64,000 nt of DNA from Dehalococcoidia bacterium (GCA_965116015.1 OZ220477.1:985076-1049075), one strand, 5' to 3'; counted from the first letter of the stretch, positions 30,094 to 50,775 are shown. Numbers and translations: made by a program. Notes: generated by a model from the letters alone, not told the origin.

Positions 30094-33000
30094 CTAGCGG
30101 CGGTCTTGGCGGGGGGCGGAGCGTTCGCGGACGGTGATTGCGCCGTCGTTGCCGAGCGATTCGTGGAAGGCTACGCGGGTGCGCTTGCCGCCATGAATCT
30201 GGGGTTCGCGAGCGAGTTTCTCACGCAGTAGTTCGAGGGGGCCGCCCGGTTCGCAGAGCTCCGGCGGCAAGCCGAGCACGTCGACGAGGAGGCGGCGGTC
30301 TAGCTCTGCGCGCGATGGGTCTTCGTCGATTTGGTCGAAGGGGAGGAAGCGGAGTTCGGCCATCGCTTCGAATGCGGCTTTTGCAGCGGCGTGCTGCTCG
30401 GCAGTGAGGGTTCGCGTGTCGAGGGCGGGGATGTTGGGGATTCCGGTGACTGTGATGCTTCCCCTACCCGACTGGGTTTTGTTCGCCGCCCACCAGTGCA
30501 TCAGGAGTCCCAGGGTGGAGTTGCACCAGAGGGCGAACGCGTACTCGTGATCAGGATCGTCGAAGATGATCGATGGCCACGCTCTGCCTCCGAGACATCG
30601 GCGCTCGGTCATCGCGACGATAAGGGACTGCGAGTTGAACCGCAGGTCGGCGTTGTAGTGGGCTCGGGTGGCGGTGTCCCATATTTTGGAGACGGCCTCG
30701 CTGTCGACGGGGAGTCCGTCGGAATCCGGTTCGACGGTCAGGCGGCGCTCGCGTTTGTTGTCGTGCGCCCAGAGGACGGGATAGGTGGGGGCGGGAGATT
30801 GGAGCGGGCGTACCCGGAAAGCTCCTCGCGGCGTGTTCGTAGGGCTACCGATCAGGCGATGGACGGGGCCTGTCCTAGCGATTGCGGAGATGGGGACGAT
30901 GGGGAGGTGAATATGGGTAGTTCCGAGGCGGGCGAAGTGGGTTAGCTGTCCGCGAGCGAGGTTGAATGCGGCCTGCGCCAGAGCGCAGTCGGCGATGCCG
31001 ACGAATTGCCAGGGGCCGTCGGGTGGGAGCGGCGCAGAAACGACCGCCTACGGTGCGGTCGTTTCTGCGCCGCTCCCGATTTTTATGGGCTGGAATTCCC
31101 CATCTTCGATGGCGCCGACTGCGCCGTCGGCGCGCATCCGCGTGATTTCGGCTGCGAGGAGTTCAGCTTCTTGGGTGGAGCGCGTCTGCCGGTTGAGTAT
31201 GGCGAATGTGGCGCGATGCTGCGGCAGGTCAGGGTCTCGGCGGGCGATGAGGAGGCACTCGGCCATCCCTGTGTCGGCGGAGAACGAGGCTTCGTCGCTG
31301 CCGGCTCCTGCGATGGTGACGACGGTGATGTCTTCGTACTTTTCCCGCCAGGCGGCGCGGGCGTCGTTCCAGGAGATTCCGCTCATTGCGCTGAGGGGGA
31401 GCACGAGGGCGATCGTTCCGTCGTTGCGGGCTTTGCGGGAGGCGAGCTCGGCGAAGTGCGACGCCAATCCGGCGTAGTCGTTGGAGGGAGCGCCTCTCGT
31501 GAGCGTCTTGACACGCGCGGACATCGCCTCCTGCTCGCGGTGGGTCTTCTCGAAGGCGGCGTATGCGGGTATGGGGACGTCCGCGTGGCTTGCCTCGTGG
31601 TTGGTGGGGCGGGTGAAGGGCGGGTTCATTATCACGAGGTCGAACTCTCGGTGGCCTACCCGCGAGACGAGGTCGCTCACTTCTTCAGGTTCGCGGGCGC
31701 CCGACATCACTGCGGCGGCTTTATCAATCAGGGACGGCTGCACGTGCTCGGCGAGGAGGTCGAGCGAGCCGACTGCGACGGGGCCGCTAGGCTGATCGTC
31801 GAGGGGGACTGTCGAGGGGATGTCGCCGTAGGGCATCGTGAGGAGGCATTCGCCGTCGAAGGGGGTGGCTGGGCGGCTGCCTGCGAGCATTGCGGCGGTG
31901 AGGTGCACGGCCATCGGGAGGACGTCGAGGCCTACGAGTCCGTGCTTCATCATTGGGGCATGGAGGGCTTCGGCGTCGCCGCCGTGGAGTTCGTGGAGGA
32001 GGGACATTCGGTGGTAGGCGGCGGAGAGGAGGGTTCCTGTGCCGCAGGCGAAGTCGCCGATCTGGACGCCTGCGAGGGTGTCGGCGTCGGCCCAGTCTGA
32101 GCCGCCGGGCGGGCGGTGGGTGGGGAGGGCGAGGCCGGCGAGGAGGGCTGCGGCTTCGGGTCGGGTGTAGTAGGTGGCGAGGAATTTGCGGTCGGCGATG
32201 AGTTTCTGGAAGACGACGCCCATAAGGTCGTGGGAGCGGGTTACGCCTCCGGCGACGAGCTGCTGGGCGGTTCGCCAGAGCGCGCCGAGGATTGCGTGGG
32301 AGGTTTGGGCTGGCATCCGGGAGACGATCTCTTTGGCGGTCCAGAAGATGGGCCAGTAATTGACTTTGAGGATGCGCTCCCACTCGAGGCAGAGCTCGTC
32401 GGCGGTGAAGCGGCCGCCGGGGCGGAAAGCGCTCACGGAGCGGATGCTGTGGCGAGGGGCGTCCTCGTCTGCGGGGGAGTTCTCGGGCGCGTTCGGGTCT
32501 TCCGGGACTTGGAAGCTGGCCTCGGCGAGCGATTCGTGGAAGACGAGGGCGTTCGCGACGACGGTCATCGCCATACGGCGCGTCTGGCCGTTGGGGTCGT
32601 CGGCCTGGCCGAGGGTTGTGGCGATCTTGGCGGCGAGTTCGGCGCCGTAGGGATGCCGGCGGGCGAGTTCGTTCGCCGCCAAGTCGACTCCCGCCTCGAA
32701 GCTGAAGGCGAGCGCCTCGATGCGGGGGGCGGGGAGCGTCGCCCGCTGCACGAGCATTGCGAGGTTGAGGACGCTTCCTTTGATCCAGCCGTCTTCGGGG
32801 AGGCGTTCGGGGGGTTGGTCGTTGGGGCGCCGGGTGTAGAGCGCGTATTCGAGGTCGCGGGAGCTGCGGATGCCGCTCCGGAGGGGCTGGCCGTCGAGCC
32901 AGGTTAGTTCGTCGGGGTAGACGAGGGCGATGGCGGTTTCGATGGGGCGTCCGTTCGTTTTCTTTCCGAGGCGGGATCTGGCGTCGGTCTCGGCGCTTGC

Positions 33001-33186
33001 GTAGTTGGCGCGCTCGGCTTCGATGACGACTGGCCATCCGCTGGCGTCTTCGATGATGATGTCGGCGCGTCCGCCGCCGTCGAGGGCGCCGAGTTCTTCG
33101 AATCTGACTGTCCAGCTGTTGCGGAGGTTTCCGAGCGTTTCGCCGAGGGCGGCGTTGATGGTTTGTTCGTGGGTGGGGCCGAGCAT
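30094..33186 (-). pseudogene. type IIG-like fused restriction-modification enzyme (~1030 aa) interrupted by one in-frame TAG at 31048-31050
   Basis: N-terminal nuclease-like RADIII...VVIEAE, YYTRP, DFACGTGTLL (motif I), VIMNPPF (motif IV). I translated 31047 to 30612 by hand; it is open and in frame with the 30094..30612 ORF. Confidence 0.82.
31025..31077. repeat. perfect 23-bp inverted repeat with 7-nt loop containing the premature stop
   Basis: GGGAGCGGCGCAGAAACGACCGC-CTACGGT-GCGGTCGTTTCTGCGCCGCTCCC. Confidence 0.97.
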
Positions 33187-33221
33187 AGCGGCGAGTTTAT
33201 CCGTGAGCTGGAGGGGGCGCT

Positions 33222-33291
33222 AGCAGGGCGTGTCGCGCGGCGCAAGTTGGGGCGGAGTCGGAGGGCGCCAGCAGGGCGTGTCGCGCGGCGC
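33222..33291. repeat. 22-bp direct repeat, two copies, intergenic
   Basis: AGCAGGGCGTGTCGCGCGGCGC at 33222 and 33270. Confidence 0.75.
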
Positions 33292-33349
33292 CGGTGGGCG
33301 GGGAGGCGGTGTCGTTGGGGCGGGTATTCGGTAGTATCATCTGCGAGCT

Positions 33350-34585
33350 ATGGATTTTGAGCTTGCGTGGACGCCGGAGCAGGAGGACTTCCGCAAGGAG
33401 GTTCGAGGGTGGCTTGAGGTCAACGCTCCGCGGATTCCGGATCATGCGGACCCGGCGAAGCTGACTCGCGCGGAGTACGAGCAGCAGCGGGAGTTCGGGC
33501 GCAGGCTTGGGGCGAAGGGGTGGCTGTATCCGGCGATGCCGTTGGAGTACGGGGGCGGGGGGATGTCGCTAGAGCTTGCGATGATCCTCGAGGAGGAGCT
33601 CGACGCGCACAATCTGCCGCTGCCTCCGTACTACGACACGGGAGGCAAGCTGGGGGCGATGGCGATTCTGGTGTGGGGGGACGAGGATCAGAAGCCGCAT
33701 TTCCTGCCGAGGATTCTCCGGGGAGAGGCGCGCACATGGCAGCTGCTGACGGAGCCGGAGTCGGGGTCGGATCTTGCGAGCGTGCGGACTACTGCGATGC
33801 GGGACGGGGACGATTATGTGGTGAACGGGACGAAGATCTTCGTGGGGAGCAATCACGGAGCGGAGTATTCGTGGACTATCGTTGTCACCGATCCGGAGGG
33901 GGAGCGTCACGCGAATCTTGGGTGGTTGATGATTCCGATGGATCTGCCGGGCATTACGGTGGAGCCGATGGATCTGCTGTTTGTGGGCGGGGAGCGCGGG
34001 GCGGCGAGCGGGGTGAAGAACACGGTGTTCTTCGACGATGTGCGCGTTCCGGCGTTCAATCTTGTCGGGGGCGAGAACAATGGGTGGAAGGTGGCGGGGA
34101 CGCATCTGGAGATCGAGCACGGGCTGCTGCGGAGCGCGGTGCGCGAGGATGCTCTGACGCGGCGGGTGTTCGAGCACGCCCGGGGGGCAATGCGCGAGGG
34201 GAAGCCGCTTACTGACGATCCGGATGTTCGGGACCGTTTGGTTGATTTCTATATCGATTCCGAGGTGACGCGGCTGCTGCACTTCCGCAACTATGCGTGG
34301 CGTGCGCAGGGGAAGCAGCTCACGTATGAGGCTCCGCAGGCGTATCTGTATCAGAAGCGCAGCCAGCTTTCGCGGGCGCGGGCTGTTCTGGATGTTATGG
34401 GCCTGGAGGCGCTGGTTGCGGATCCGGACGAGTGGGCGGTCGCGGAGGGGCATATCGAGACGCATCAGCGCGCCTCTATTGTGGATCAGCATCCGGGGGG
34501 GACGGCGGAGATTCAGCGGGTTATCATCGCGAGGCGGCTGGGGATCGGGCGGGAGGCTCGCGAGGAGCCGGGGAAGCTTCGCTAG
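33350..34585 (+). CDS. acyl-CoA dehydrogenase (alpha-type subunit)
   Basis: TEPESGSDLAS, YVVNGTKIF, VFFDDVRVP, GGENNGWKV, GGTAEIQR.IIA. Confidence 0.92.
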   Translation: MDFELAWTPEQEDFRKEVRGWLEVNAPRIPDHADPAKLTRAEYEQQREFGRRLGAKGWLYPAMPLEYGGGGMSLELAMILEEELDAHNLPLPPYYDTGGKLGAMAILVWGDEDQKPHFLPRILRGEARTWQLLTEPESGSDLASVRTTAMRDGDDYVVNGTKIFVGSNHGAEYSWTIVVTDPEGERHANLGWLMIPMDLPGITVEPMDLLFVGGERGAASGVKNTVFFDDVRVPAFNLVGGENNGWKVAGTHLEIEHGLLRSAVREDALTRRVFEHARGAMREGKPLTDDPDVRDRLVDFYIDSEVTRLLHFRNYAWRAQGKQLTYEAPQAYLYQKRSQLSRARAVLDVMGLEALVADPDEWAVAEGHIETHQRASIVDQHPGGTAEIQRVIIARRLGIGREAREEPGKLR

Positions 34586-34589
34586 GGGT

Positions 34590-35684
34590 ATGGATCTTCT
34601 CCTCAACGAGCAGCAGCGAATGCTGCAGGCGGCGGTGGAGGAGCTTCTGCGGCGCGACTTCCCGAAGGATGTTCTCGCGGCCATCGACGCGGGAGCTGCA
34701 AGCGCCAGGGATCGATGGGAGGCGATCGCTTCCACGGGTATTCTGGGAATACTCGTTCCGGAGGAGTACGGGGGAGCCGGAGGGTCGTTCTCGGACGCGG
34801 GAGTCGTGTTCGAGGAGCTGGGCAAGGGTCCGGCGCCGGGGCTGGCGTTTTCGTCGGGAGCGCTTGCGGCTCTCGTGATTCTGGAGGCCGGGAGCGCGGA
34901 GCAGAAGCGGGCGTGGCTGCCGGCGATCGCGGACGGGAGCGCGGCGTTCGCTGTCGCGGCGACAGCGTCGGGGGCGGGATGGGACTGCGAGCATGCGGAT
35001 TTCGAGGTCGAGGGCGGAAGGGCGCGGGGCGTGAGTTTGAGCGTTCTCGACGCTGCGGCGACGCATTTTCTGGTCGCGGCGCGGATGGCGGGAGGGGTCG
35101 GGCTTGTGGTCGTTCCCGCCGATGCGCGGGGGGCGAGCGCGCGGGCGGTCGCGGGAATGGGGGCGGGCCTGGGAGAGCTGAGGCTCGATGGCGCGGAGGT
35201 GGACGGCGCGGCGGTGATTCCGCCGGGCGAGGAGACGGACAGGGCTGTGGGGCGGGCGGCGCTGCGGGCGTCGGCGCTGCTTAGCGCGTATCAGGCGGGC
35301 GGGATCGACCGTGTGTTCGAGATGTGTTTGACGTATAGCCGGACGCGGCGGCAGTTCGAGCAGCCTATCGGTCGTTTTCAGCGGGTGCAGGATCACATTA
35401 TCGATATTGTGAATCACCGCGACGCGGCGCGCTGGGCGACGAACGAGGCTCTGTGGAGGCTCGATACGGGGAGGCCGCCGGAGGCGGGGGTTCATATGGC
35501 CGCGGCGCTGGCAAGCGAGGGCTACTATCTGGCGTGCAATTCGGCGCACGATGTTCACGCGGGCGTCGGAATCGTTCGGGAGTACGGGCTTACGCTCCAC
35601 ACCAAGATGTCGCGGACGCTGTACGGTTATCTTGGGAGCCCTCTCTATCACCGGCGTCGGATCGCCAGGGCGCTTGGTCTTTAG
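34590..35684 (+). CDS. acyl-CoA dehydrogenase (beta-type subunit)
   Basis: Start MDLLLNEQQ; VPEEYGGAG, RRQFEQPIGRFQ, HAGVG..REY.L. Confidence 0.9.
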   Translation: MDLLLNEQQRMLQAAVEELLRRDFPKDVLAAIDAGAASARDRWEAIASTGILGILVPEEYGGAGGSFSDAGVVFEELGKGPAPGLAFSSGALAALVILEAGSAEQKRAWLPAIADGSAAFAVAATASGAGWDCEHADFEVEGGRARGVSLSVLDAAATHFLVAARMAGGVGLVVVPADARGASARAVAGMGAGLGELRLDGAEVDGAAVIPPGEETDRAVGRAALRASALLSAYQAGGIDRVFEMCLTYSRTRRQFEQPIGRFQRVQDHIIDIVNHRDAARWATNEALWRLDTGRPPEAGVHMAAALASEGYYLACNSAHDVHAGVGIVREYGLTLHTKMSRTLYGYLGSPLYHRRRIARALGL

Positions 35685-35699
35685 CGGGGGAGCGCCGCT

Positions 35700-36926
35700 G
35701 TGCTTTCGCCCTACCGCGTTCTCGATCTGGCCGACGACCGGGGGATCTTCTGCGGGCGGGTTCTTGCGGATCTGGGAGCGGAGGTTCTCAAGATCGAGCC
35801 TCCCTCCGGCGATCCTGCGCGGCGCATCGGGCCCTTTTACGGCGACGATCCGGGAATCGAGAACAGCCTGTTCTGGCAGCTCTACGCGGCGAACAAGAAG
35901 AGCGCGGCAATCGATATCGGGACGCCCGCGGGGAGGGATGTTGTGCTCCGGCTCGCCGCCGGCGCGGATTTCCTGATCGAGTCGTTCAGGCCGGGGCATC
36001 TGGACGAGCTTGGGCTGGGCTACGACGCTGTCGCGGGGGTGAATCCCCGGCTCATCTACGTTTCCATTACGCCGTTCGGGCAAACGGGGCCCTACCGGGA
36101 TTTTCTGGCGACTGATCTTGTGGGGGCGGCTCTTAGCGGGTTCGCGTATCTGACTGGGGATCCGGACAGGCCGCCTCTGCGGGTGAGCGTTCCGCAGTTC
36201 TGGACGCTTGGGGGAGCGGCGGGGGCGGCCGGGGCGATGGTCGCGCATTCGCATCGCGTCCACACTGGGCGGGGGCAGCGGGTGGATGTTTCGTGCGCGC
36301 AGACGCTGACGCGGACGCTGTCGCACGCTCCGCAGTTCTGGGATATGAACGGGGTTGTGCTGGAGCGCGCGGGGCCGTTCCGGCCTATCGGAAGCGGGCG
36401 GATGTTGCGGGTTAATTTCGAGTGCGCGGACGGGTATGTGAATTACATTCAGCCTGGCGGGGCGACGGGCGGTCGCGCTATGGCGGCGATGAGCGCGTGG
36501 ATGGAGGAGGAGGGGGAGGGGAGCGCTCTTCTGAGCGGCACGGATTTCGGGGCGTACGGTTTCGGGCAGCTGCCGGACGCTGTGCTGGAGGAGATGAGCG
36601 TTGCGCTGGAGGCGTTCTTCAAGAGCCGCACGAAGCGGCGGCTTTCGGAGGAGGCGATCGCGCGGCGGGCTCTCCTTTTTCCGGTGAACGATCCGGCGGA
36701 TGTGCGCGCCTATCCGCAGCTTGCCGCCAGGGGTTTCTTTCGGGAGGTCGAGGGGCCGGACGGCGGGGCGCTCACGACCCTGGGGCCGTGGATCAGCGCG
36801 AGCGAGCGGCCTATCGCTATTCGTCGCGCGCCGCGTCTTGGGGAGCATACGGACGAGGCGCTCGCCGCCGCCGGGCTGGCTCCGGACGATGTCCGCGCTC
36901 TGCGCGAGGCAGGGGCGACGCTGTGA
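35700..36926 (+). CDS. CaiB/BaiF family III CoA-transferase subunit
   Basis: RVLDL, LADLGAEVLKIEPP.GDP.R, ANKKS, SITPFGQTGPY, APRLGEHT. Confidence 0.92.
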   Translation: MLSPYRVLDLADDRGIFCGRVLADLGAEVLKIEPPSGDPARRIGPFYGDDPGIENSLFWQLYAANKKSAAIDIGTPAGRDVVLRLAAGADFLIESFRPGHLDELGLGYDAVAGVNPRLIYVSITPFGQTGPYRDFLATDLVGAALSGFAYLTGDPDRPPLRVSVPQFWTLGGAAGAAGAMVAHSHRVHTGRGQRVDVSCAQTLTRTLSHAPQFWDMNGVVLERAGPFRPIGSGRMLRVNFECADGYVNYIQPGGATGGRAMAAMSAWMEEEGEGSALLSGTDFGAYGFGQLPDAVLEEMSVALEAFFKSRTKRRLSEEAIARRALLFPVNDPADVRAYPQLAARGFFREVEGPDGGALTTLGPWISASERPIAIRRAPRLGEHTDEALAAAGLAPDDVRALREAGATL

Positions 36927-38134
36927 GGGCGCCGTTCGAAGGTCTGCGGGCGCTCGATTTCTGCTGGGTCGTAATCGGGCCGATGACGACGCGCTACCTC
37001 AGCGACTTCGGGGCGACTGTGCTCCGCGTGGAGTCGGCGCTGCGTCCGGATGTTATTCGTCATGGTCTTCCGTTCGCGGAGGGGAAGGGCGGGGTGAACA
37101 GGAGCGGGTACTGGGCGAACTACAACAGCGGGAAGCTTGGGCTGGGGCTCAATATGGCGGACGAGCGGGCGCGTCGCATCGCGTTCCGGCTGGCGACTGA
37201 GTGGGCGGATGTTGTGACTGAGAATTTCACTCCGGGGACGATGGAGAGGTGGGGGCTTGGGTATGAGGCGATAAGCGAGCGGAATCCGGGGGTGGTTATG
37301 TTCAGCGCGTCGATGCTGGGCCGTGGGGGGCCGTACGACGCGCAGCCGGGGTTCGGTCCGGTGCTCACGGCGCTTTCGGGGCACACGCACTTCACAGGGT
37401 GGCCCGATCGGGCGCCGGCGAGTCCTTACGGGGCCTACACGGATTTTCTTATCCCGCACATAGCTGTTTCGGCGATCATCGCGGCGCTTGATCACAAGCG
37501 GCGGACGGGGCGCGGGCAGCGGCTCGATCTCTCGCAGCTGGAGGCGGCGCTCTACTTCGCGGGGACTCCTGTGCTCGACTATCTTGCGAACGGCCGGGTT
37601 TCGGGACGCGCCGGCAACGCCGATCCGGCGATGGCGCCTCATGCGATCTACGCCTGCGCGGGGGAGAATCGCTGGTGCGCTATCGCATGCGCGACCGACG
37701 AGCAGTGGCAGGCGCTGGCGAACCTTGCGGGGCGTCCGGATCTTGCGGGGGATCCCGGGCTGGCGCGCTTGCCGGGGCGCAAGGCTCGGGAGGCGGAGCT
37801 CGACGAGGCGATCGAGGCGTGGACGCGCAATCTTGCGCCGGACGAGGCGATGCGCCGGTGTCAGGCCGCCGGGATTCCCGCAGGGGCGGCGCTCGATTCG
37901 CGGGGGCTTTTCGGGGATCCGCAGTATGCGAGCCGGGGGCACTTCGTGTTTCTGGAGCATCCGGAGATGGGACGCTACGCATCGGACGCGAACAGTTTCC
38001 TGCTGTCGGAGGCCGCGGCCTCTTACCGGCGCGCTCCTCTGCTGGGGGAGCACACGGAGGGCATCCTGCGGGAGATTCTGGGGATGACCGCCGAGGAGAT
38101 TCGGGCTCTGGCCGAGGACGGGGCGCTCGATTAG
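36923..38134 (+). CDS. CaiB/BaiF family III CoA-transferase subunit
   Basis: GTGA overlap; FEGLRALDF.W..GP, ENFTPG.MERWGLGY, AYTD (catalytic Asp), APLLGEHT. Confidence 0.92.
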   Translation: MRAPFEGLRALDFCWVVIGPMTTRYLSDFGATVLRVESALRPDVIRHGLPFAEGKGGVNRSGYWANYNSGKLGLGLNMADERARRIAFRLATEWADVVTENFTPGTMERWGLGYEAISERNPGVVMFSASMLGRGGPYDAQPGFGPVLTALSGHTHFTGWPDRAPASPYGAYTDFLIPHIAVSAIIAALDHKRRTGRGQRLDLSQLEAALYFAGTPVLDYLANGRVSGRAGNADPAMAPHAIYACAGENRWCAIACATDEQWQALANLAGRPDLAGDPGLARLPGRKAREAELDEAIEAWTRNLAPDEAMRRCQAAGIPAGAALDSRGLFGDPQYASRGHFVFLEHPEMGRYASDANSFLLSEAAASYRRAPLLGEHTEGILREILGMTAEEIRALAEDGALD

Positions 38135-38183
38135 GGGGGGCGCGGCGCTTCTGTTCCGGGCGCATCCTGAGGGGAGTTGCGGG

Positions 38184-40453: not shown

Positions 40454-43238
40454 GGGGGCGAGGGGTTCGTTTCTGCACGGCGGCGTTTCTTCTGTGCGCG
40501 GTCATCGCCGTGTGCGCGGGGGCTTGCTCTGCGCCGACGCCTACCCCAACGCCGACGCCTACCCCAACGCCGACGCCTACCCCAACGTCGACGCCTACCC
40601 CAACCCCAACACCTACCCCGACGCCGACGCCTGTGCCGGCTACGTACTCCATTCTCTACGAAGCTGCGCGGTCGCTCAGCGGCGACAGGGGATTGGTGGA
40701 GACCGAACTCATCCTTTCGGTGACCAACACGGGGGAGCTCGACGGCGTGGACGTTCCTGTGAGCGTGTCGGTGAACGGTGAGGCGGCGCAGGCTGCGAGT
40801 CCGATTCCCCGGCTCTCCGCTGGGGAGTCGATGCCGCTTGTTATTCCGAGCGCGCTTCCGCCGGGGGAGCATCAGGCGCTGTTCCGCGTCGGGAACGAGG
40901 AGCTGGAGTCGACGGTTCGCGTCCTGGCGGCGGATCTTGGGATTGCGGTGGAGTATCACGCTATCGTCAGCGATGGGGTGATTACGGTTGAGGCGCGGAT
41001 CACGAACAGCGGCAACCTTGCGGCGGAGAGCGTCGTTGTCTCCGCCGCGTGGACGCCGCAGGAGGGAGCGGAGGGGATGGAGGGCGCCGAGGAGAAGGCC
41101 GCCGTGCTCGCCGCGATCGGTCCTGGGGAGAGCCGCGACGCTGTGCTTGCGCTAGACGTCCCCACTGGGGCGTACGACCTTGCGGTTGCTGTCGCGACGC
41201 AGAGCGTCGAGGCCGACGCCGACGACAATGCGGCGGAGTATCCGCTTGAAATCGAGTACGCGCTCCTTGATGTCGGCGTGGGCGAGGCGGAGACGACAGG
41301 CTACGAGACTGACGGCGACGGGGTTGTCCGTGTCGGCGTGCGGATCGCCAACGCGGGGGTCGCGGACACGGGGGCGCTTACGGTCGGGGCGAGGTGCGGC
41401 TCTGACGGCGCTGAGCCGTCGTGCGGCGCGACGACCGAGATTGCGTCGCTTTCGCCCGGCGGGAGCGCGGATGCTGTGCTGTCGCTGTCGCTGCCGCAGG
41501 GGAGACCGTCCTCACAGTGTTCGCGGGCGCCGACGAGGACACGTACCGCTGGGGCGAGCGCAACACAGTCGAGTACGCCGTGCGCGTGCCCGAGAAGCCG
41601 GCGATCGATCTCTCGCTTGCGGCGTCGGTGGAAGTGAGCGGCTACTGGTCGGACGGCACAGCTGATGTCGAGGCGGCTGTAACCGTGCGAAACGACGGCT
41701 ACCAGCCTGTCGACGGTCCGCTGAGCGTGACGATTGCCTGCGCGCCTGAGGGTTTGGACGCGCTGGACGGCGATTCCGTGCTGGACGATTGCGGCGGAGT
41801 TGCGGGGGTTGCGCTTGCGGACGGTTTCGGGCCCGCGACGGTTGCGTCGACTGTGCGCGTTCCGATGGGGACGGCGGTGTGGGCGTCGCTGGCGGGGGGA
41901 GCGGAGGCGGCGTTCGGGGCTGCTGTTCCTGAGCGCATCGTCGGGGTCGAGCGCGAGGTCTGGGAGTGCTACAGCGATCGCCCGGCGGCGAAGCCTACGC
42001 GCGAGAACGACTTCCGGGGCGGGTGCGGCGGGTGGCAATCTCCGAGGATTGTGAAGTGGGATCACGACGAGCCGGTGCGCGTTTGGGCGGATCCGACGGG
42101 GAACTGGCAGTACATCGCGATCCTGGAGGAGACGCTTGATGAGCTTGCGCCGTTGCTGAACCTTGAGTTCGAGTGGGTAAGCGACAGCGCGGATGCGGCG
42201 CTTAAGGCGTATGTTGGCGTGCCGTCCAGCCGCAACGCGTCCATCGACTTCCCTGACTACTGCGAGGATGCAGCCGGTTGCGGCGGTCCGGATTTCATCA
42301 GGAACGGGCTGATAATGAGCGCCACCCTAAGCGTGTGGTTGGACTGGGACGACGACAGGGTTGAGATCAAGCACATAACTATTCACGAAGCTCTTCACGC
42401 CCTCACGAACGTACATCATCCGGCCAACCCTCTCAGCATGATGTCCATCAGGACTGCGCTTCGTCTTGACCGCCTCCTCAGCTTCGACACGAAGCTGTAC
42501 GAGCTGCATAGCAACCCGCTCGTCGAACCTTACATGACGATGAACGAGGTCGAGGCGCTCATCGTGTTCGCCGACGAGTTGCTTGACGCTCCGCTCAAAG
42601 AGACGGGCGCGGAGAGTGGACTCCGGCTTGCTGAGCTTGCCTACGCGGCACTCATCGACGCGGGGTCCGCGCGCTTCCGCGTCAAGGGGCACTGGGGAGA
42701 CAGCCGCGGTTGCCGCAGCGGCACGTTCTCCGGCGTCCATACGCTTGGGAATCTTGGCAACGGGGCTCCGCGCATCACTCGATTCGACAGCGGGCGGGAG
42801 AGCGTCATCGTGCATTATTCTGAGAACGGAGGTTGGCGCTACTGGTGGAACCAGCGAGGTGCGTGGCGTGAAGTGGACAGCATCTCCAGTGCTGGAATCC
42901 GCTGGCGCTCTGCCTACACTGACCCTGTCGATATGCTCATCAGCATTCTGCGGTACGCGGATGAGGAGGACATCGGGGTTTATGCGCTTCCATCGGGCGC
43001 GGCTCAGTTGGACGTAAATCTGGATGCCGCGAGGGCGAGTCCTAGCTGGGCGAGCGGTCTGACTCTGCAAGTGAACATCACGCTGGATACGGAAACGTAC
43101 GAGATACAGGATTACGAGATGCGGTGGGACTTCGACGTATCCGGCCTTTTCGGCCTTTCGTGCTCCGCTTACGAGGCGCGCGGCTGGAACGAGGGGTATG
43201 GGGTCAGGATATCCTTGCCCGCCGGAATCGCCGGCTAG
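40450..43238 (+). pseudogene. frameshifted lipoprotein: lipobox, PT linker, CARDB/Ig-like repeats, zinc metalloprotease domain
   Basis: Signal peptide ending AGAC; repeated VTNTG/ITNSG/IANAG/VRNDG motifs; HEALHALTNVHH. The two ORFs join if G4 at 41499-41502 is G5 (LPQG-ETVLTVF). May be a sequencing error. Confidence 0.72.
40534..40632 (+). repeat. 18-bp tandem repeat encoding a Pro-Thr linker
   Basis: CCGACGCCTACCCCAACG units, about 5.5 copies, degenerating 3'. Confidence 0.9.
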
Positions 43239-43343
43239 GGGGGCGCGGTCGCGGGGAGCGTCGGCGGCGCGTCGAGGGGGAGGCTGGGAGTGGGAGGGGG
43301 TTCGGCTGGTAGAATCGGGCAAGCTCAGCGAGAGGAGCGCGCT

Positions 43344-43691: not shown

Positions 43692-43785
43692 CGGGGTCGT
43701 GGTCTGGGTGTGGGGGCGGGAGCATCGGGCTGGGCAGCAGGCGTGTGGGAGCGTCGGGGCGGGGTCGGAGGGGCCGCGGGGCGCG

Positions 43786-43814
43786 TTGACGCTCGGGGGC
43801 GCCGCTGGTAGGCT
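43786..43814 (+). promoter_or_regulatory. sigma70-type promoter of the thrC-like operon
   Basis: TTGACG-17nt-TAGGCT about 105 nt upstream of the ATG. Confidence 0.6.
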
Positions 43815-43918
43815 AGGATGCAAGCCGAGATGAGAGTTCCCGCTCTTTAGGGCGGGTGTATGGCGCATGCGGAGTAGGCTAACCGCCGCACGCGCCGTTG
43901 TTTATGAAGGGGGTTGCC

Positions 43919-45145
43919 ATGGCGTACACCGCCGCTCTGCGCTGCAAGGAGTGTTCCCGCGAGTATCCGATCAGCGCTTTCAATGTTTGCGATTTCTGTT
44001 TTGGTCCGCTCGAGGTGGTCTACGACCTTGATGTGATTGCGGAGCGTACGAGCCGCGAGCGGATTATGTCGGGGCCGCAGAGTTTGTGGCGCTACGCGGA
44101 TTTCCTTCCGGCGGACTACAACCCGGCGATCGATATCAACGCGGGGTTCACGCCGCTGATACGGTCGCGGCGGCTGGCGGAGCGTCTGGGTCTGCGGGAG
44201 CTTTGGATAAAGAACGATAGCGTGAACCCGTCGTATTCGTTCAAGGATCGGGTTGTGGCTGTGGCCTCGGCTATGGCGCTGCAGCTTGGGTTCGACACTA
44301 TCGCTTGCGCGTCGACGGGGAATCTTGCGTGCTCGGTGGCGGCGCATGCGGCGCGGGCAGGGCTCGAGGCGTACGTGTTCATTCCGTCCGACCTCGAGAG
44401 GGGGAAGGTGCTCGGGGCGGCTGTCTATAATCCGACGATGGTGGCTATCGACGGTAGCTATGATGTGGTGAACAAGCTTTGCAGCGAGCTTGCCGACCAG
44501 TATCGCTGGGCGTTCGTCAACATCAATGTGCGGCCGTTCTACGCGGACGGTAGCAAGACGCTGGGGTACGAAGTGGCGGAGCAGCTGGGGTGGCGGGCGC
44601 CGCAGCATGCGGTGGCGCCTTCGGCGTCGGGGGCGATGTTCACGAAGATTCATCAGGGGCTGAAGGAGTTCGAGCGGGTGGGGCTGATCGGCGGGGTGGA
44701 GACGCGGATGCACTGCGCGCAGGCGCGCGGGTGCTCGCCGATCGCTTCCGCGTACGAGAAGGGGAGCCTTACTATCGAGCCTGTGAAGCCGGACACGATC
44801 GCGAAGTCGCTTGGGATCGGGAATCCGGCTGACGGCTACTATGCGCTGAAGACGATCGAGGCGTCGGGGGGCTCGGCGGTGATCGCGGAGGAGCACGAGG
44901 TGGCGGAGGGCATCAAGCTGCTGGCGGAGACTGAGGGGATCTTCACTGAGGGAGCCGGGGGGGTGGCGGTCGCGGGGCTGAAGCGCCTGGTGGAGCGGGG
45001 GGAGATTGGGCCGGACGAGTCGACGGTGGTGTACATCACGGGGAACGGGCTGAAGACTACGGAGATTGTGGCGGATGTGGTGAATCCTGTGCGGATCGCG
45101 CCGACGGTGTCAGCGTTCGAGGAGGCGATGGCCATCCGGGCCTGA
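43919..45145 (+). CDS. thrC: threonine synthase-like PLP enzyme
   Basis: N-terminal CKEC/CDFC, GFTPL, NPSYSFKDR (PLP Lys), CASTGNLA, GSKTLGYE.AEQLGW, ITGNGLKT. Confidence 0.88.
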   Translation: MAYTAALRCKECSREYPISAFNVCDFCFGPLEVVYDLDVIAERTSRERIMSGPQSLWRYADFLPADYNPAIDINAGFTPLIRSRRLAERLGLRELWIKNDSVNPSYSFKDRVVAVASAMALQLGFDTIACASTGNLACSVAAHAARAGLEAYVFIPSDLERGKVLGAAVYNPTMVAIDGSYDVVNKLCSELADQYRWAFVNINVRPFYADGSKTLGYEVAEQLGWRAPQHAVAPSASGAMFTKIHQGLKEFERVGLIGGVETRMHCAQARGCSPIASAYEKGSLTIEPVKPDTIAKSLGIGNPADGYYALKTIEASGGSAVIAEEHEVAEGIKLLAETEGIFTEGAGGVAVAGLKRLVERGEIGPDESTVVYITGNGLKTTEIVADVVNPVRIAPTVSAFEEAMAIRA

Positions 45146-45150
45146 GCGTT

Positions 45151-45396
45151 ATGGCGGCGATGCAGCGCGTGCGGTTCACGTTTCCCGACAGGCTTATCAA
45201 GGAGCCTGTTGTGTATCGGATGGGGCGCGATTTCAGCGTTGTGACGAATATCCGTCGCGCGGATGTTCAGGAGAGTATCGGGTGGGTGATTCTTGAGGTT
45301 GAGGGGGAGGTTGAGGAGATAGAGCGCAGCCTTGAGTGGGTGCGGTCGCAGGGCGTGCGGGTGGATCCTGCGCTGGGCGATTTGGTGGAGCCGTAA
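45151..45396 (+). CDS. NIL-domain protein
   Basis: FTFP..LIKEPVVY...VVTNIRRADV...GWVILEVEG...GVRVDP. Confidence 0.85.
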   Translation: MAAMQRVRFTFPDRLIKEPVVYRMGRDFSVVTNIRRADVQESIGWVILEVEGEVEEIERSLEWVRSQGVRVDPALGDLVEP

Positions 45397-45417
45397 TTTA
45401 TGGGAGGACACGAAACG

Positions 45418-45696
45418 ATGAGCGTTATGGTGCGCATACCTGGGCCTCTGCGGCGCATGACGGACGGCGCCGACAAGGTGCACGTCGACGCGGATGATCT
45501 GAGCGGTCTTATTGCGGCGCTTGAGGATCAGTATCCGGGGATGAGGGAGCGGTTGCTGGACGAGAATGGCGAGGTGCGCTATTTCGTGAACTTGTATCTG
45601 AATAACGAGGATGTGCGGTTCCTCGGGGGACTCGGCGCGGCGGTTAAGCCGGGCGACGAGGTGAGCATTGTGCCCGCGGTGGCGGGCGGGGCGTAG
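45418..45696 (+). CDS. MoaD/ThiS/CysO-family sulfur carrier ending -GGA
   Basis: VRIPGPLR, FVNLYLNNEDVRFL.GL, IVPAVAGGA*. Confidence 0.9.
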   Translation: MSVMVRIPGPLRRMTDGADKVHVDADDLSGLIAALEDQYPGMRERLLDENGEVRYFVNLYLNNEDVRFLGGLGAAVKPGDEVSIVPAVAGGA

Positions 45697-45783
45697 CCTC
45701 CGGTCGGGGCGCCGCCCCGCCGGCGAGGCGCATCGCCGACTCCCCTTCCCGTCCGCGTTGCGCGCGCGGGCGACAGGAAAGTT

Positions 45784-46491
45784 GTGACGCAGCCGCCATC
45801 GAATGACGACAATCTTTATACGGAGCGGGAGCTCGCGGAGATCGACGAGCTGAATCGCGCGACTCGCAGCGACGGGGGGTTTCTGCAGAGCCGCTGGTGG
45901 AAGCGGATCGGGATCGCGTTCGCTGTTGTTATTGTGGCGTCGTTCGCGCTGCCGATTGTCGCCGGACTGGGGAGCGGCGGAGGGGGCGGAGGGTCGTCTG
46001 ATCTTGCGCCGGCGGAGAGTCTTGCTGTTCCGGATTTCGCGTTGGAATCGGCGCAGGGGGGAGTTGTGCGGTTGTCGGAACGGGCGGGGGCGAATTCGGC
46101 TGTTGTGCTTGTGTTCTACCGGGGGTATTTCTGAGGGATCTGCCGCAGCCAGCTCGGTGAGTTGGAGGAGGCTTACGAGGGGATTCGGAAGCTGGACGCC
46201 GAGCTTCTTGTGATCAGTACGGATACGGTTGAGGATGCGCGGCGGATGCGCGATGAGGTTGGGGCGTCGTATCCGGTGCTGGCGGATCCGGACGCGGAGG
46301 CGGCGTCGACGTACGGGATTTTCGATCTGCTTGGGGACGGGGTTGCGGCTCCGGCGACGTTCATTATCGCGGGCGGGGGGCTTGCGGCGAGTCACGTGGG
46401 GCAGGACATCGGGGATCGGGTGTCGGGCGCGGGGATCGTTCAGGCGCTGCGTGAGCTAGCGGGTGCGGGGTCGTCGGGGCGGGCGGGTTAG
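45784..46491 (+). CDS. membrane-anchored AhpC/TSA peroxiredoxin-like selenoprotein (UxxC), Sec at TGA 46132-46134
   Basis: The two track ORFs are in one frame; reading through gives PDFALES...VLVFYRGYF-U-GICRSQLGEL...LLVISTD...YPVLADPD...PATFII; hairpin just 3' of the TGA. Confidence 0.85.
46135..46172 (+). promoter_or_regulatory. putative bacterial SECIS element
   Basis: Stem CCAGCTC-GGT-GAGTTGG (46149-46165) starting 14 nt after the UGA, G-containing apical loop. Confidence 0.65.
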
Positions 46492-46846
46492 GGCGGGGGG
46501 TGATTGACTCTATGGAGTAGTCCATGCCCCGGGATTGGCACCAGAGCTCCGCTGCCCTGCGCTTTCGCTGCACATCCGGGGAATCCGCCATGTTCGCCGC
46601 TTTGACTTCGATGAGGGCGAGCGAGCCATCCGTGTACTCAACGAGGAAGTCGGGGCGGTAGGAATGCTGGCGGTGGCGGTTGTCCACCCAGCCAATCGTG
46701 ATGCGGTGGCGCTTTGTCCACTTGCAGACAGTAGAATCTGCTTCGAGGCGGTCCATCATAAGCCGCTCGTGGCCAGAGTCGTAAACTTCGAAATTCCAGG
46801 CGCTCTTCTTCGGCTGCTCGTAGTTTCCGCGCTCAATTCCCGGCAT
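46364..46846 (-). CDS. TnsA N-terminal-like PD-(D/E)xK endonuclease
   Basis: YDS..E...M..LE.D, YRPDFLVEY.DG...LIEVK; overlaps the res gene stop. The true end may be TAA at 46488 if G6 at 46495-46500 is G7. Confidence 0.8.
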   Translation of the reverse strand: MPGIERGNYEQPKKSAWNFEVYDSGHERLMMDRLEADSTVCKWTKRHRITIGWVDNRHRQHSYRPDFLVEYTDGSLALIEVKAANMADSPDVQRKRRAAELWCQSRGMDYSIESITPRPNPPAPTTPHPLAHAAPERSPRPTPDPRCPAPRDSPQAPRPR

Positions 46847-48836
46847 GCTCGATCATTCCTCCTATGATGTCGGTGCGTCCGGTGAGGAGCTTCTCCATTT
46901 CGTTGAGACGGGGAAGGGCGCGGCGAAGGGCAGCGTCTTCCGCGAAAGCGAGAGGCTCGCCATCAAGAAATCGCTGTTCGAAGTGCTCGCGCAGCGGCTT
47001 GTCCACCCAGCGGCGCATATGGGCGGAATAGCCCGCGTCAATCGTTGCTTGCTCTCCTATCTGACGCAGGCGTTCGCGTATCTTCTCTTTAGCTCCTTCC
47101 GTGGAGAGGGTCTCCTCTTCTGCAGCAATTTCCGCAGGAGCGCTCATGCGCCTCGTCCAGCCCCCTGAGGCAAGCTCTCGGCCAATCACTCCTGAGAGCT
47201 TCACTTCGGTGATTTCCACTGCCTCGGGACTGTATTCGAGCGAGGCAAGCAGGTCAGCCCAATCGCGAGCGGGCTTGGGCGGCCGGGTCACGACAACTGG
47301 GTCCAGCGTGGGTTCGGGATCCGAAGGTTCAGGAATCGTGATGATTAAGTCGGTATTGACGATTTTCTGCGGGGGAGGAGAGTCGCCGCGCTCCTCCCGT
47401 TCGTCGAACTCCTGCTGTACGCCTACGTTCTTGCGAACGCGCGCACCCAAGAGATCCCACAGCCACTCATGATCCAGTTTCTCATGGTCAACCACCGCGC
47501 ATATCTGCGGTTCGTTCGGTGCGATATCCGGATGGCGCACACGGCGCAGGCCCCGCCCGATAATCTGAGGGCCGTAGACCGTGCTTCCGATCTTCCGCAG
47601 CAGCAGGATGACCGCCACTTCGGGCACGTCCCAGCCTTCGCGCAGCATTGCGACGCTCACTACTGCGTCGTACTTCCCGCTACGCCCGATTGCTGCAGCG
47701 TGGGCGCGCGCGCTTTCATCCTCGTCCTCGGTTACGACCAAGGCGCGCAGATTGAACTCATTCGTCAGCACTTGGGCTGCTTTCTTCGCATCCGCCTTGC
47801 AGACCGCTACTACGAAGAGCACGGGGCTGTAGCGCCCTGCCGCATTCCGTCTCGCTTCCTGCAAGCGATTCAGCGCGATGCTGATCTGCTGGCTCATCGG
47901 CTTGGAGTCCGTTACCCATTGCGTAGCGCTCAGGCCGGCCTTGTCCACTTCGTCCCAATCGATTTCTTCCACTCTCCGATGTTCGCCGGTTACCGCATCC
48001 GTATAGGTCAGTTCCACTGCGTCGATGTTTGGCTGGTAAACAACGGGTTTGGCGATGACGCCATCGTTCAGCGCTTTTGGAATGTCGTACTCGTAGATCA
48101 TCTTGCTGTCGGGGGCTTTGCCATCAGCGCGGTCGGGCGTTGCAGTGGTGTCGAGGCGGAACGAGTAGCCTGCGTGCTCGCGTAGCTCCGACAACGTGCG
48201 GTAGTACTCCGGCGCGGGGGAGTTGTGCGCTTCGTCGTTGAAAATAGCGAACGGCGTGCTCTGTGCGCCGAAGAGGGCCCAGAGATTCTCCTGCCCGGTT
48301 TTCGACGATTTGTAGAACTGGTGAATATTCGCCAACACCACGTTGGAGCCGAACAGATCGGTCGCGGAGGCTCTGGAAGATCCTCCCAATGTGGTGAGCG
48401 CAAAGGGGTTCGCGGCAAACGGGGCGCCGGGCGGGATTAGGTTTCGGTCGGTAAATATCTTGCCTTGAGTGAAGTCTGCCTCCAGGCGGTCGCGCACAAT
48501 GAGATTCGGGCAGAGAATGAGGAAACGCTGCACGTTGTGCGCAAGGCGCAGCCAAACCATCGTTGCGGCGATGAGGGCTGTCTTTCCTCCACCCGTTACG
48601 ATGTTCAGCAGCAGTCCGTCTTCCCAGAAATCACGACGCCCAACCTCACGCGAATAGATGACGCGCAGCAAAGCGTCCCACTGATGAGGCCAAAGCCCTC
48701 CCGCCCGAGGCCGCAGTTCGTCCTCAGGGTCGGCGAGAAACCGCAAGTACTCTTGGGTCGCGTCGTGGGATGGTGCGAAGTGGCCAGCCACCCAAATTCC
48801 GAAGTCGCTCTCGTAGCCCTCGAATACGTTCTGCAT
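46833..48836 (-). CDS. type III restriction Res-like SF2 helicase subunit
   Basis: LWPHQ, TGGGKT, CPNLIV.DRL, NDEAH, TATP, MLREGWDVP, QIIGRGLR. Confidence 0.85.
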   Translation of the reverse strand: MQNVFEGYESDFGIWVAGHFAPSHDATQEYLRFLADPEDELRPRAGGLWPHQWDALLRVIYSREVGRRDFWEDGLLLNIVTGGGKTALIAATMVWLRLAHNVQRFLILCPNLIVRDRLEADFTQGKIFTDRNLIPPGAPFAANPFALTTLGGSSRASATDLFGSNVVLANIHQFYKSSKTGQENLWALFGAQSTPFAIFNDEAHNSPAPEYYRTLSELREHAGYSFRLDTTATPDRADGKAPDSKMIYEYDIPKALNDGVIAKPVVYQPNIDAVELTYTDAVTGEHRRVEEIDWDEVDKAGLSATQWVTDSKPMSQQISIALNRLQEARRNAAGRYSPVLFVVAVCKADAKKAAQVLTNEFNLRALVVTEDEDESARAHAAAIGRSGKYDAVVSVAMLREGWDVPEVAVILLLRKIGSTVYGPQIIGRGLRRVRHPDIAPNEPQICAVVDHEKLDHEWLWDLLGARVRKNVGVQQEFDEREERGDSPPPQKIVNTDLIITIPEPSDPEPTLDPVVVTRPPKPARDWADLLASLEYSPEAVEITEVKLSGVIGRELASGGWTRRMSAPAEIAAEEETLSTEGAKEKIRERLRQIGEQATIDAGYSAHMRRWVDKPLREHFEQRFLDGEPLAFAEDAALRRALPRLNEMEKLLTGRTDIIGGMIEHAGN

Positions 48837-48840
48837 TGGA

Positions 48841-50661
48841 TTAACTCACTTCTATTTCCGCGCTGTGCATTCCCTCTCCGCCTTTGTCATCCTGCACTTT
48901 GCAGGCCACTGTGAAGGCGCCAGCGCGTGGGAATGTGTGCTGGGCAGCGAGGGAGGCGCGTTCAGCCCATGGCAGACGCTCCGCGTGGAACGTCCGCCCG
49001 TTGTAGTCGAAGTCCCACTGCACGTTGATGATCTTGGCGTCGGGGTTGTATGTCTGCGTGTCGCTTGCGTCGAATCCGTAGTGCAGCGGCTTGAGCCGAC
49101 GATTCGCAAAGGAGACTTCTGGAGGTTGCACGAACGTGAGGAAATTCGAGTAGTCGCCGCGCTCGGTGGACTGCGAGGCGACGTGCTGCCGGAACGAGGG
49201 GGAATCTATGCGCACTTGCTCCAAGCGAACGAATGCGATGTGGGCAGCTCCGCGCTCGCGGAGTTCTTCAGCGGCTTGAACAGCATCCGGCGCGAATCCC
49301 CACGCCAGCATCACGCCATCGCGTAGTCCTTCCTCGTTTGAATAACGCGGCAACCTCGCAATCGCCTGAGCGAAAGCGTTAACGTCTTCAACCGTAACCG
49401 GCGAGGTGAGAGAGGGAGAGCCAACCCATACAGGCGCCTTTGCGTTCGAGCCTTTGTAGCCGTGGATGCCCTCGTCCGCGCTCGTAAAGCGAGCGTCGTA
49501 GCAGCAAAGCACGAAGCTGCGGAATTCGTCCGGCGGCATCTGCGACAGCCGCTCCGCCTCGTAGATGCCCCACTGCTCTATCGTGAAGTCGGGAGGCGCG
49601 CCCTCTTCCAGGGTGCGCACGATGGCTTGCCGCTTCAGTCGCTCAGCGGTAACTGCTATTGCAACGCGCGATTGGTCGCAACCGAGGAACTTGCGCTGCA
49701 GTCGCTATGCGACTGCAGCGCAAGTTCCGCCACCTACGAAAAAGTCAGCTACGACATCACCCACTTTCGACGACGCTTTAATGATGCGCTCAAGCAATGC
49801 TTCGGGCTTTTGAGTAGGGTAACCAACTCTCTCATTCGCTGTTTGTGACATCGTGTAATCAATCAGTTCATCATTATCCCAGAAGGAGTCTACTGGTTTT
49901 CCTCCTTTCAAGTAGTACCGCTTCCCATCCTGAATGAAGTACTTACCTTTTTCATCTTCTAGATTGTATTTTTCACGCATCCATTTGGACACCGGTCCGC
50001 GTATTTTGTTGTGATGGCTCTTAAGGGACTTAGCGTAATAGAAGATAATGTCATGCTTTCTCGGAAACCATCTCGCTACATTAAACCCGCCCAGTCCATA
50101 GTGCCAGATTACCTCGTTGCGGAAATTCTCATACCCAAACATCTTGTCCATTTCGACTTTGATGTAGTGGCTGGCGTGCCAGTCGCAGTGCACGTAGATG
50201 GAGCCCGTAGGCTTGAGAAGGCGCTTCATTTCGTAGAGGCGAGCGTTCAGCCAGACGAGGTAGCCGTCCAGACCTCCTTCCCAGATATCAGTGAACGAGC
50301 GCTCCTCGTTGTCGTCGCCCCAGAGGACGTTGTAGTTACGGTTGGAGAAGAAGGGCGGATCGATGTAGATGAGGTCAACGCTTTCAGAGGGAATCTGGCG
50401 CATCACGTGGAGGCAGTCTCCCCAGATGAGGCGATTGGGGTCGTGCGGCTCTTCTCTGCCAAGCTTGACGCGCTCGACAATCTGGGTAGGAAGGTTGACG
50501 ACGGGATAGTGGTTGCGGAATCCGGTGTTGCGCGAGTCCCACCCCAGCGGGGTGCGCGCGACAGGCACGTTCCCGAACCTGGCAGGCGGTCGGTAGAACT
50601 CCTCCTGCTGCGGCAGCGGCTCCGCTACGAGGTCGTCAGGCTGCAGTTGCTCATCAGCCAT
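48841..50661 (-). pseudogene. type III Mod-like DNA methyltransferase (~606 aa, C-terminal PKD-like domain) interrupted by one in-frame TAG at 49705-49707
   Basis: LIWGDCL, IYIDPPF (motif IV), YPTQKPEALLERII, DFFVGGGT (motif I) CAAVA*RLQRKFLGCD continues in frame into 48841..49620; PKD-like WDFDY..HTFP.AG.FTVACKVQDD. Confidence 0.85.
49686..49728. repeat. perfect 20-bp inverted repeat with 3-nt loop at the premature stop
   Basis: GGAACTTGCGCTGCAGTCGC-TAT-GCGACTGCAGCGCAAGTTCC. Confidence 0.97.
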
Positions 50662-50775
50662 GGGCGCGCGCCTCCGAGTCCCTAGAATGGGCGAGCGGAT
50701 AGTACCGCACTGGGTATGCCGCTGCGAGGCTTTCCCAATGCGGGATTCCCGCACAACCGGAAGCGCCCCCCTAGC

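Follow-up and report, generated by a model that had tools for sequence, protein, structure and literature searches.

Perfect hairpins in restriction-modification genes of a Dehalococcoidia bacterium as candidate loop-inversion switches

Can a gene be turned off and on by reversing a few nucleotides at the tip of a hairpin? This question is raised by a 64,000-nt stretch of DNA from an uncultured Dehalococcoidia bacterium (GCA_965116015.1 OZ220477.1:985076-1049075, hereafter the window), in which two restriction-modification (R-M) genes, here called W1 and W2, each carry a single in-frame TAG at the apex of a perfect hairpin. The host genome, labelled G000, is a metagenome-assembled genome (MAG) of one contig, with 2,388,059 bp and 64.8% G+C. 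The original prediction, made from the sequence of the window, regarded both hairpins as switches that operate without a recombinase. From the comparisons described below, we consider it likely that these hairpins, and others found in the same genome, are evolved and reversible loop-inversion contingency switches, probably operated by replication template switching.

Hairpins with a stop codon at the apex

Hairpin 1 (31025..31077) consists of two 23-nt arms (31025-31047 and 31055-31077) enclosing a 7-nt loop (31048-31054), and hairpin 2 (49686..49728) of two 20-nt arms (49686-49705 and 49709-49728) enclosing a 3-nt loop (49706-49708); their genome positions are 1016100 and 1034761. Both were recovered by a repeat search, with arms that are 100% complementary. 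Folded as single-stranded DNA, they reach -35.1 kcal/mol (z = -9.0) and -29.3 kcal/mol (z = -8.4), respectively, and in neither case did any of 200 shuffles fold as well. Both sit in long minus-strand frames, and translation of these frames finds exactly one internal stop in each. The TAG of W1 (31048..31050, minus strand) is made up of the final three loop bases of hairpin 1 on the gene strand, while that of W2 (49705..49707, minus strand) combines one arm base with two loop bases of hairpin 2, a hairpin that encodes part of the S-adenosylmethionine (SAM)-binding motif I region of the protein. Reversing only the loop removes the stop in either gene and leaves the frame unchanged. The arms of the two hairpins have nothing but trivial end bases in common, the genome-wide list holds no further perfect hairpin with arms of at least 14 nt between 985076 and 1049075, and no recombinase was found among the 10 open reading frames (ORFs) of the window scanned with Pfam. 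The description of the hairpins given in the original prediction is thus confirmed.

Two more familiar kinds of element were looked for at these sites. Tandem Repeats Finder (TRF) detected no homopolymer or short repeat tract in W1 and W2, only weak repeats with a period of 9-12 nt and 2-3 copies. An intrinsic-terminator test found no T run 3' of hairpin 1 or hairpin 2 on the gene strand; a terminator-like score was obtained for hairpin 1 on the antisense (plus) strand only, and for hairpin 2 on neither strand. On the plus strand, hairpin 1 is followed by GATTTTT (31028-31084), an arrangement resembling an intrinsic terminator antisense to W1. On the gene strand of W1, an A-run beside hairpin 1 encodes Ile-Lys, and the same A-run is present in G003, the sister species considered below.

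The whole G000 sequence was searched for perfect inverted repeats with arms of at least 14 nt and loops of at most 12 nt. This census yielded 47 hairpins, 14 of which have arms of at least 18 nt; for such arms and loops, the chance expectation in 2.39 Mb at this base composition, estimated by hand, is about 0.002. Of these long hairpins, 11 fall within genes to which Pfam assigns a DNA-methylase or R-M domain, so that the association with defence genes for which the original prediction had proposed a whole-genome search is indeed found. Besides W1, these genes are three type IIG enzymes of the Eco57I type and a further gene in which Eco57I and N6_Mtase match more weakly; the PF01555 methylase W2 and a second PF01555 methylase, fused to HNH; a pair of DUF1156 methylases; the HsdS gene hpD; and a gene of 1675 amino acids (aa) that combines Mrr-like, helicase, and methylase domains. 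Of the remaining three hairpins, one is a zero-loop palindrome within a gene that has no Pfam match, one is located between dctP and dctQ of a TRAP transporter operon, and one is a copy of a small repeated element. Only two of the 14 are outside a long open frame, and one more is in the gene without a Pfam match.

The R-M hairpins have arms of 18-29 nt and loops of 1-9 nt. Their arm sequences are unrelated, and no motif common to the arms of the 11 was found. Internal mismatches are absent from every long hairpin of G000, and the approximately 290 base pairs of 13 hairpins include no G-U pair and no mismatch. R-M genes take up a small share of the genome, with 6 Eco57I-type genes, 14 PF01555 matches, 4 PF02384 matches, and 2 DUF1156 matches; since many more of them lack a hairpin than carry one, the hairpins mark a subset of the R-M genes, consisting mostly of large enzymes.

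The state of the loops was then compared with random loops drawn into the same arms and the same codon phase. Eight of the 11 loops give a stop in exactly one orientation, versus 2.2 expected (Poisson-binomial tail, P = 5.7e-5). Six genes have the in-frame stop now (hpA, W1, W2, hpD, hpE, and hpF; OFF), and two are open now and would acquire a stop upon flipping (oH and oJ). In all six OFF genes, the stop is the only internal one, is located at the apex, and is flanked on both sides by long open stretches in the same frame. Read as switches, six systems are thus OFF and at least two ON in the G000 consensus. As the present loop of oI already matches the Arg-Asn of its family, its flip would be a two-residue change. 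A test on conserved residues was uninformative for hpA, the stop of which falls in a variable column. All six OFF genes are on the minus strand of the assembly, which may be chance (1 in 32). A link to the replication strand was considered and set aside, as hairpin genes occur on either side of the local GC skew in no consistent relation.

Several features of the genome were recorded alongside the census. Strand asymmetry is extreme in G000: taken in 20-kb windows, and also over positions 25000-46000 of the window, the GC skew ranges from +/-0.2 to 0.37 over blocks of ~100-500 kb, with many sign changes around the chromosome instead of two, and it tracks the DNA strand rather than the coding strand (-0.23 at W1, a minus-strand gene). 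The palindrome between dctP and dctQ (genome 952304-952351) has perfect 24-nt arms and no loop, and probably forms an intercistronic structure, in RNA or DNA, that has no relation to the R-M hairpins. Hairpins with the common core CCCTGGGAGGAGCG (genome 4482-4515, 279962-280004, and 2386719-2386757) lie outside long frames and resemble a small repeated palindromic element. The DUF1156 methylase oI contains two perfect hairpins 200 nt apart (genome 527676-527706, 14-nt arms and 3-nt loop, and 527908-527948, 18-nt arms and 5-nt loop), neither of which gives a stop either way. A PF01555 methylase at genome 1504156-1504929 is matched as two pieces in different frames and is probably frameshifted.

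The W1 hairpin in a sister species

W1 (30094..33186, minus strand; 1030 codons with one internal TAG) is a gene for a type IIG-like single-polypeptide R-M enzyme, with an N-terminal nuclease-like part, an NPPF methyltransferase, and a C-terminal target-recognition part; its Pfam matches, Eco57I and MTS, are both weak. The family is common as uninterrupted proteins of ~1030 aa, and the closest match to W1 in public proteins shows 65% identity. G003, a genome of the same genus, has an orthologue with 69% amino acid identity, which carries its own perfect hairpin with 23-nt arms and a 7-nt loop at the same codons. Between G000 and G003, the arms differ at 8 of 23 positions, and all eight differences are compensated in the opposite arm, so that conservation of the hairpin by chance can be dismissed. 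The loops differ at three positions, all of them wobble positions, the stop being TAG in G000 and TAA in G003.

When either loop is flipped, Ala-Pro-stop becomes Ala-Tyr-Gly. In 39 W1 homologues without the hairpin, the second residue of the matching column pair is Gly throughout (39/39), and the pair is YG in 22, FG in 7, LG in 4, CG in 3, VG in 2, and SG in 1. Because the flip yields Tyr-Gly, the sense that fits the family lies on the opposite loop strand in both species: in G000 as in G003, the W1 loop is the reverse complement of the sequence that would encode the Tyr-Gly of the family, which is the spacer inversion expected of a template-switch site.

The two genomes have been separated for long enough to saturate synonymous divergence (dS of 1.4-2.1 across W1). 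Upstream of the stop, the ratio of non-synonymous to synonymous divergence (dN/dS) is 0.125 for aa 1-350 and 0.082 for aa 351-700; downstream, aa 735-858 have a ratio of 0.276 and aa 859-1030 one of 0.081. As dN/dS is low on both sides of the stop, W1 has not been a dead pseudogene since before the species split. Moreover, the 145 codons that follow the stop in G000 contain no in-frame ATG, GTG, or TTG, and this stretch can therefore be made only within the full-length protein. The original prediction had also proposed that orthologues be examined for a conserved hairpin with compensatory arm changes and mixed loop states. The former are present in G003; mixed loop states are not, W1 being OFF in both genomes.

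The second gene of the window, W2 (48841..50661, minus strand; ~606 codons with one internal TAG), codes for a PF01555 N4/N6 DNA methyltransferase with a C-terminal PKD-like domain; the frame is also open from a GTG farther upstream, at 50754. Homologues of 590-670 aa, at most 74% identical, run through the stop position without interruption. Directly downstream, a gene for a Res-type helicase/restriction subunit (46833..48836, minus strand, scanned as 46836-48836; Pfam ResIII, 1e-14, and SWI2_SNF2) is likely the restriction partner of W2, judging from its domains and position. With PF01555 in W2 and a ResIII-type gene next to it, W2 is taken as the mod gene of a predicted type III-like pair, and the order of the two genes is that of type III systems (Mod gene, then Res helicase-nuclease gene). 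The W2/res island has a GC skew near 0 and a lower G+C content (57%), as if recently acquired. Between W1 and W2 lie metabolic genes, including those for an acyl-CoA dehydrogenase, a CoA-transferase, an aminotransferase, and a pyridoxal-phosphate (PLP) enzyme. At the junction of two plus-strand ORFs, an 18-nt tandem repeat (40532-40632; 5.6 copies, 89% match) varies among contigs of three sequencing runs.

Origin, flipping, and rival explanations

Where orthologues lack the hairpin, one arm aligns with the conserved protein and the other is either additional sequence or a replacement of a variable stretch (oJ, W1, oI, oM, and hpA), which indicates that the hairpins arise by local inverted duplication. 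For example, the orthologue of oJ in the genome G004 is missing ~10 codons, those of one arm, and the oJ hairpin is accordingly ascribed to an inverted duplication. The W1 genes with the hairpin are 4 codons longer than most relatives. G003 provides a second case in a non-orthologous R-M gene, with a perfect hairpin of 25-nt arms and a 4-nt loop that contains TAA. The footprint of a miniature inverted-repeat transposable element (MITE), of a repetitive extragenic palindromic (REP) sequence, or of a transposon was rejected as the source, given that the arms encode host protein and that one arm aligns with orthologue sequence.

In each hairpin, one arm lies on a conserved segment and the other is its inverted copy, both within the coding sequence of an R-M or methylase gene. 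With arms that are exactly complementary, inverting the whole palindrome is equivalent to inverting the loop. One orientation of the loop gives sense codons (ON) and its reverse complement a stop (OFF) or, in a minority of genes, two changed residues instead. In the mechanism that we propose, the loop would most likely be flipped by a replication template switch between the arms, without a site-specific recombinase, and a mutation in one arm would be either erased or copied to the other, keeping the arms perfect. Template switching is described as homogenizing the arms of inverted repeats and inverting their spacers in passages of PMC8604942, and has been studied in Escherichia coli as quasipalindrome mutagenesis (parts of PMC7202029 and PMC6357072). 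Because it has both effects, it would explain at once the flip and the absence of mismatches. With the sites of such switching, the hairpins share a close inverted repeat that is able to fold and arms that are homogenized (no mismatch, and 8 of 8 changes compensated). A DNA methylase trapped on DNA stimulates this kind of template switching, according to a passage of PMC6357072; the enzymes encoded by the hairpin genes could possibly influence their own switches.

The products of the OFF state are predictable from the position of each stop. A type IIG enzyme would be cut before its target-recognition part, a type III Mod protein would be truncated, and HsdS would be cut between its two halves. 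As restriction and modification are predicted to be lost together, the OFF state should be non-toxic, and we infer that flipping has a phenotypic effect.

The orientation of the loops was looked for in three runs of one study (samples X1, X2, and X3), in the form of Logan k-mer contigs, which drop rare variants. A 9959-nt contig of X1 includes hairpin 1 in the stop orientation with 0 differences, and a contig of X2 also spans it with 2 differences, both at flanking sites; the stop orientation of hairpin 1 is therefore real in two samples. X3 carries W1 at ~94% identity. At hairpin 2, the contigs of X1 break within the hairpin, with ends at 49715 and starts at 49709. Mixed orientations were considered as the cause of this break, although a second strain, ~10% divergent and sharing 53 nt around the hairpin, fits better by k-mer reasoning, and no conclusion was drawn from it.

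Several observations weigh against reversible switching. No contig set shows both loop orientations, X1 and X2, which resolve hairpin 1, having the stop only; no orthologous ON/OFF pair was seen, and searches of public proteins and metagenomes turned up no ON allele from the same species. Three of the 11 hairpins (oI, oK, and oM) have a stop in neither orientation. In W2, the stop falls where the family has an almost invariant Gln (29 of 31 homologues), the flipped loop gives Met, and the arms overwrite a Thr shared by 31 of 31 homologues and a Gly shared by 26 of 31. With a 3-nt loop, the partner of TAG in the other orientation is limited to Lys, Thr, Arg, or Met (worked out by hand). Given Met in place of Gln and a Thr replaced by one arm, the ON form of W2 is not a plain return to the family consensus, and its function may be impaired. 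The interpretation in the original prediction is thus supported in part: its core idea of a recombinase-free loop switch is strongly backed by the comparative evidence, and the residues of hairpin 2 count against it. Some hairpin genes do decay, as the hpA orthologue in G003 (C1:1780760-1785520, around 1480-1520 of this region) is frameshifted and has lost ~25 codons including the hairpin region; the locus resembles the loss of a palindrome by deletion. The trait is also narrow. Among the 67 W1-family members examined, the hairpin was found in 2 (the window gene, and G003 among 66 loci totaling 398,091 nt), and it was found in none of 80 metagenomic relatives, which were retrieved with the W1 C-terminal part and are at most 46% identical.

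Template-switch rates in model bacteria are low for phase variation, and ExoVII and RecJ restrain such events in E. coli. The ExoVII large subunit and RecJ are both present in G000, which adds to the points above. SbcD_C was not found in G000, but the same model matches only 5 of 14 control genomes. Exonuclease loss was discarded as a cause.

Other surveys of relatives gave few hairpins. In 30 Eco57I loci (104,648 nt; the domain and 1.5 kb on each side), they occurred only in the two from G000, and six further R-M-rich stretches of G003 (59 kb) contained a single hairpin (19-nt arms, 5-nt loop), outside a long frame. A single in-frame TAG or TGA without a hairpin (arms of at least 15 nt) was noted at G005:C2:58819-60858, G005:C2:2888253-2889191, G032:C1:28240-30363, G032:C5:281808-283697, and G014:C3:37340-39418; these R-M homologues may be ordinary pseudogenes, adjacent genes, or something else.

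Much of the evidence against switching would be expected if the stops were irreversible lesions, in a lineage that is prone to fold-back or template-switch palindromes, which persist only in dispensable and decaying R-M genes. The frameshifted hpA orthologue, the conserved residues overwritten in W2, the lack of a flipped loop in the contigs, and the fact that 6 of 8 stop-type switches are OFF all agree with this explanation, which we nevertheless hold to be unlikely. It does not account for a W1 hairpin and apex stop kept over a dS above 1.4, with eight compensated changes and a downstream dN/dS of 0.08-0.28, nor for a flipped W1 loop that encodes the Tyr-Gly of the family. A second lesion is found in none of the six OFF genes, oH and oJ are open through hairpins whose flip gives a stop, and mutation alone should leave many such hairpins in neutral DNA, where few are seen (2 of 14 outside a long frame, 1 more in a gene without a Pfam match). 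For hairpin 1, the one-off mutation named as an alternative in the original prediction is refuted by the conserved, compensated hairpin and the purifying selection. Alternatively, the switch could be real and be flipped by a structure-specific enzyme, such as a cruciform or hairpin nuclease-ligase or a guided recombinase. A lineage-specific factor of this type would suit a trait present in two sister genomes only, among those examined, and concentrated in one functional gene class. However, arms and loops have no common motif, perfect arms are what template switching predicts, and loops of 1-9 nt are too short for the synapsis of two invertase sites. No recombinase is near any hairpin gene: G000 has three tyrosine recombinase (PF00589) and no serine recombinase (PF00239) matches, other families being outside the search, and none is less than 58 kb from a hairpin. 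An enzymatic flip is, in our estimate, about as unlikely as irreversible decay.

It is still less probable that the hairpins act at the RNA level, the stop within an mRNA hairpin being read through, bypassed, or used for re-initiation, so that two products are made from DNA that never flips. Such a role would account for an apex stop that is in place in both genomes, as TAG in G000 and TAA in G003, and for selection on the frame downstream of it. Against it, the conserved Tyr-Gly is encoded by the reverse complement of the loop and not by the loop itself, and RNA stems tolerate G-U pairs and mismatches, of which the hairpins are free. Re-initiation is at odds with the 145 codons that lack an in-frame start while remaining at a dN/dS of 0.28, oH and oJ have no stop at present, and the window, in which stop-codon use was not surveyed, gives no sign of a general reassignment of TAG or TAA. 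Finally, loops inverted by an artefact of assembly, polishing, or sequencing, or the origin of the sequence from an engineered strain, can be given very little credence. G000 is indeed a MAG, and X1 contigs break inside hairpin 2; yet the stop orientation of hairpin 1 is spanned in X1 and X2, and the design recurs, with other arms, in a sister species whose genome was assembled independently, which together refute, for hairpin 1, the wrong choice of loop by an assembler that the original prediction had envisaged. Arms are locus-specific and encode host protein, and loops and stops have no common cassette. An engineered restriction-less strain or base editing (CAG to TAG in W2) was rejected on similar grounds, since arms are locus-specific, no cassette is present, and the sister species has the same design. 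Loop inversion by template switching therefore remains the reading that we prefer, and we infer that it is reversible within the population.

Known systems and significance

Switching of R-M genes is known in several forms, to which the hairpins can be compared. Phasevarions (type III mod genes and type I genes in which simple sequence repeats act as the switch) show random ON/OFF switching of a methyltransferase in its reading frame, with an OFF state that loses modification and restriction, and both properties are predicted for the hairpins as well; phasevarions rely on slipped-strand changes in repeat number and a frameshift, whereas here there is no tract, the frame is constant, and a stop would appear or disappear. 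Shufflons of hsdS, or 'epigenetic invertons', likewise have inverted repeats inside R-M specificity genes, the inversion of which alters the output. In passages of PMC7672463 and PMC7394358, however, a tyrosine or serine recombinase exchanges their target-recognition domains across hundreds to thousands of bp, and what changes is the specificity and not the ON/OFF state. In contrast, the hsdS gene found here (hpD) has a 4-nt loop, with the stop between the two halves of one hsdS.

Among the closest analogs are intragenic invertons with a 'premature stop', presented by Chanin et al. as invertase-mediated, in which inversion between inverted repeats within a gene toggles a full-length and a truncated product (part of PMC10028968). 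Invertible segments there measure tens of bp or more, 57 bp being the example quoted, and 7-bp mitochondrial flips are set apart as enzyme-independent. The hairpins differ from these invertons by a segment of 1-9 nt, exact arms that are unrelated between loci, the lack of a nearby invertase, and their concentration in R-M genes; nothing like these hairpins is described for bacteria in the passages of PMC10028968 considered. Of the features of invertase-driven invertons in general, the inverted repeats are found here, while an invertible segment of tens of bp or more, an adjacent recombinase, and a common repeat consensus are not.

The proposed mechanism, with its homogenized arms and inverted spacer, is that of quasipalindrome template-switch sites, which in the parts of PMC7202029, PMC6357072, and PMC8604942 considered are known as mutational hotspots or sources of an occasional multinucleotide change, and not as a conserved device in a dozen defence genes with a spacer tuned to give a stop. 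Recurrent flips that need no recombinase also affect short loops flanked by perfect or near-perfect inverted repeats in the non-coding DNA of chloroplasts. Unlike the hairpins described here, these small inversions are organellar, non-coding, and functionless as far as is known. The literature search brought up no account of a hairpin-loop switch in R-M genes, the supplementary inverton catalogs, which perhaps list very small inversions, being outside the search. The hairpins would thus represent a new variation on phase-variable R-M control, one whose mechanism the literature searched does not describe for bacteria. With slightly better than even confidence, we regard them as a new class of contingency locus, in which perfect palindromes arise de novo in the coding sequence of defence genes by inverted duplication, maintain their own arms through template switching, and toggle a stop by flips of 1-9 nt with neither recombinase nor repeat tract. 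About a dozen independent R-M switches of this type in a single small genome would provide it with a combinatorial, heritable, and reversible repertoire of defence and methylome states.

Current tools search for the traces left by repeat-tract slippage and by recombinase-driven inversion, and a hairpin with a loop of a few bases would escape them; annotation would make of such a gene a pseudogene or split it into two genes. The switch reading predicts that a minority of long reads will have flipped loops, linked on each molecule to whether or not specific methylated motifs are present. If it is true, many 'broken' defence genes in MAGs may be switchable rather than dead, and template switching at palindromes, studied so far as a hazard, would have been recruited as a regulatory device. 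The hairpins would then constitute a minimal, protein-free, and heritable ON/OFF module of ~45-65 bp that a reading frame can accommodate.

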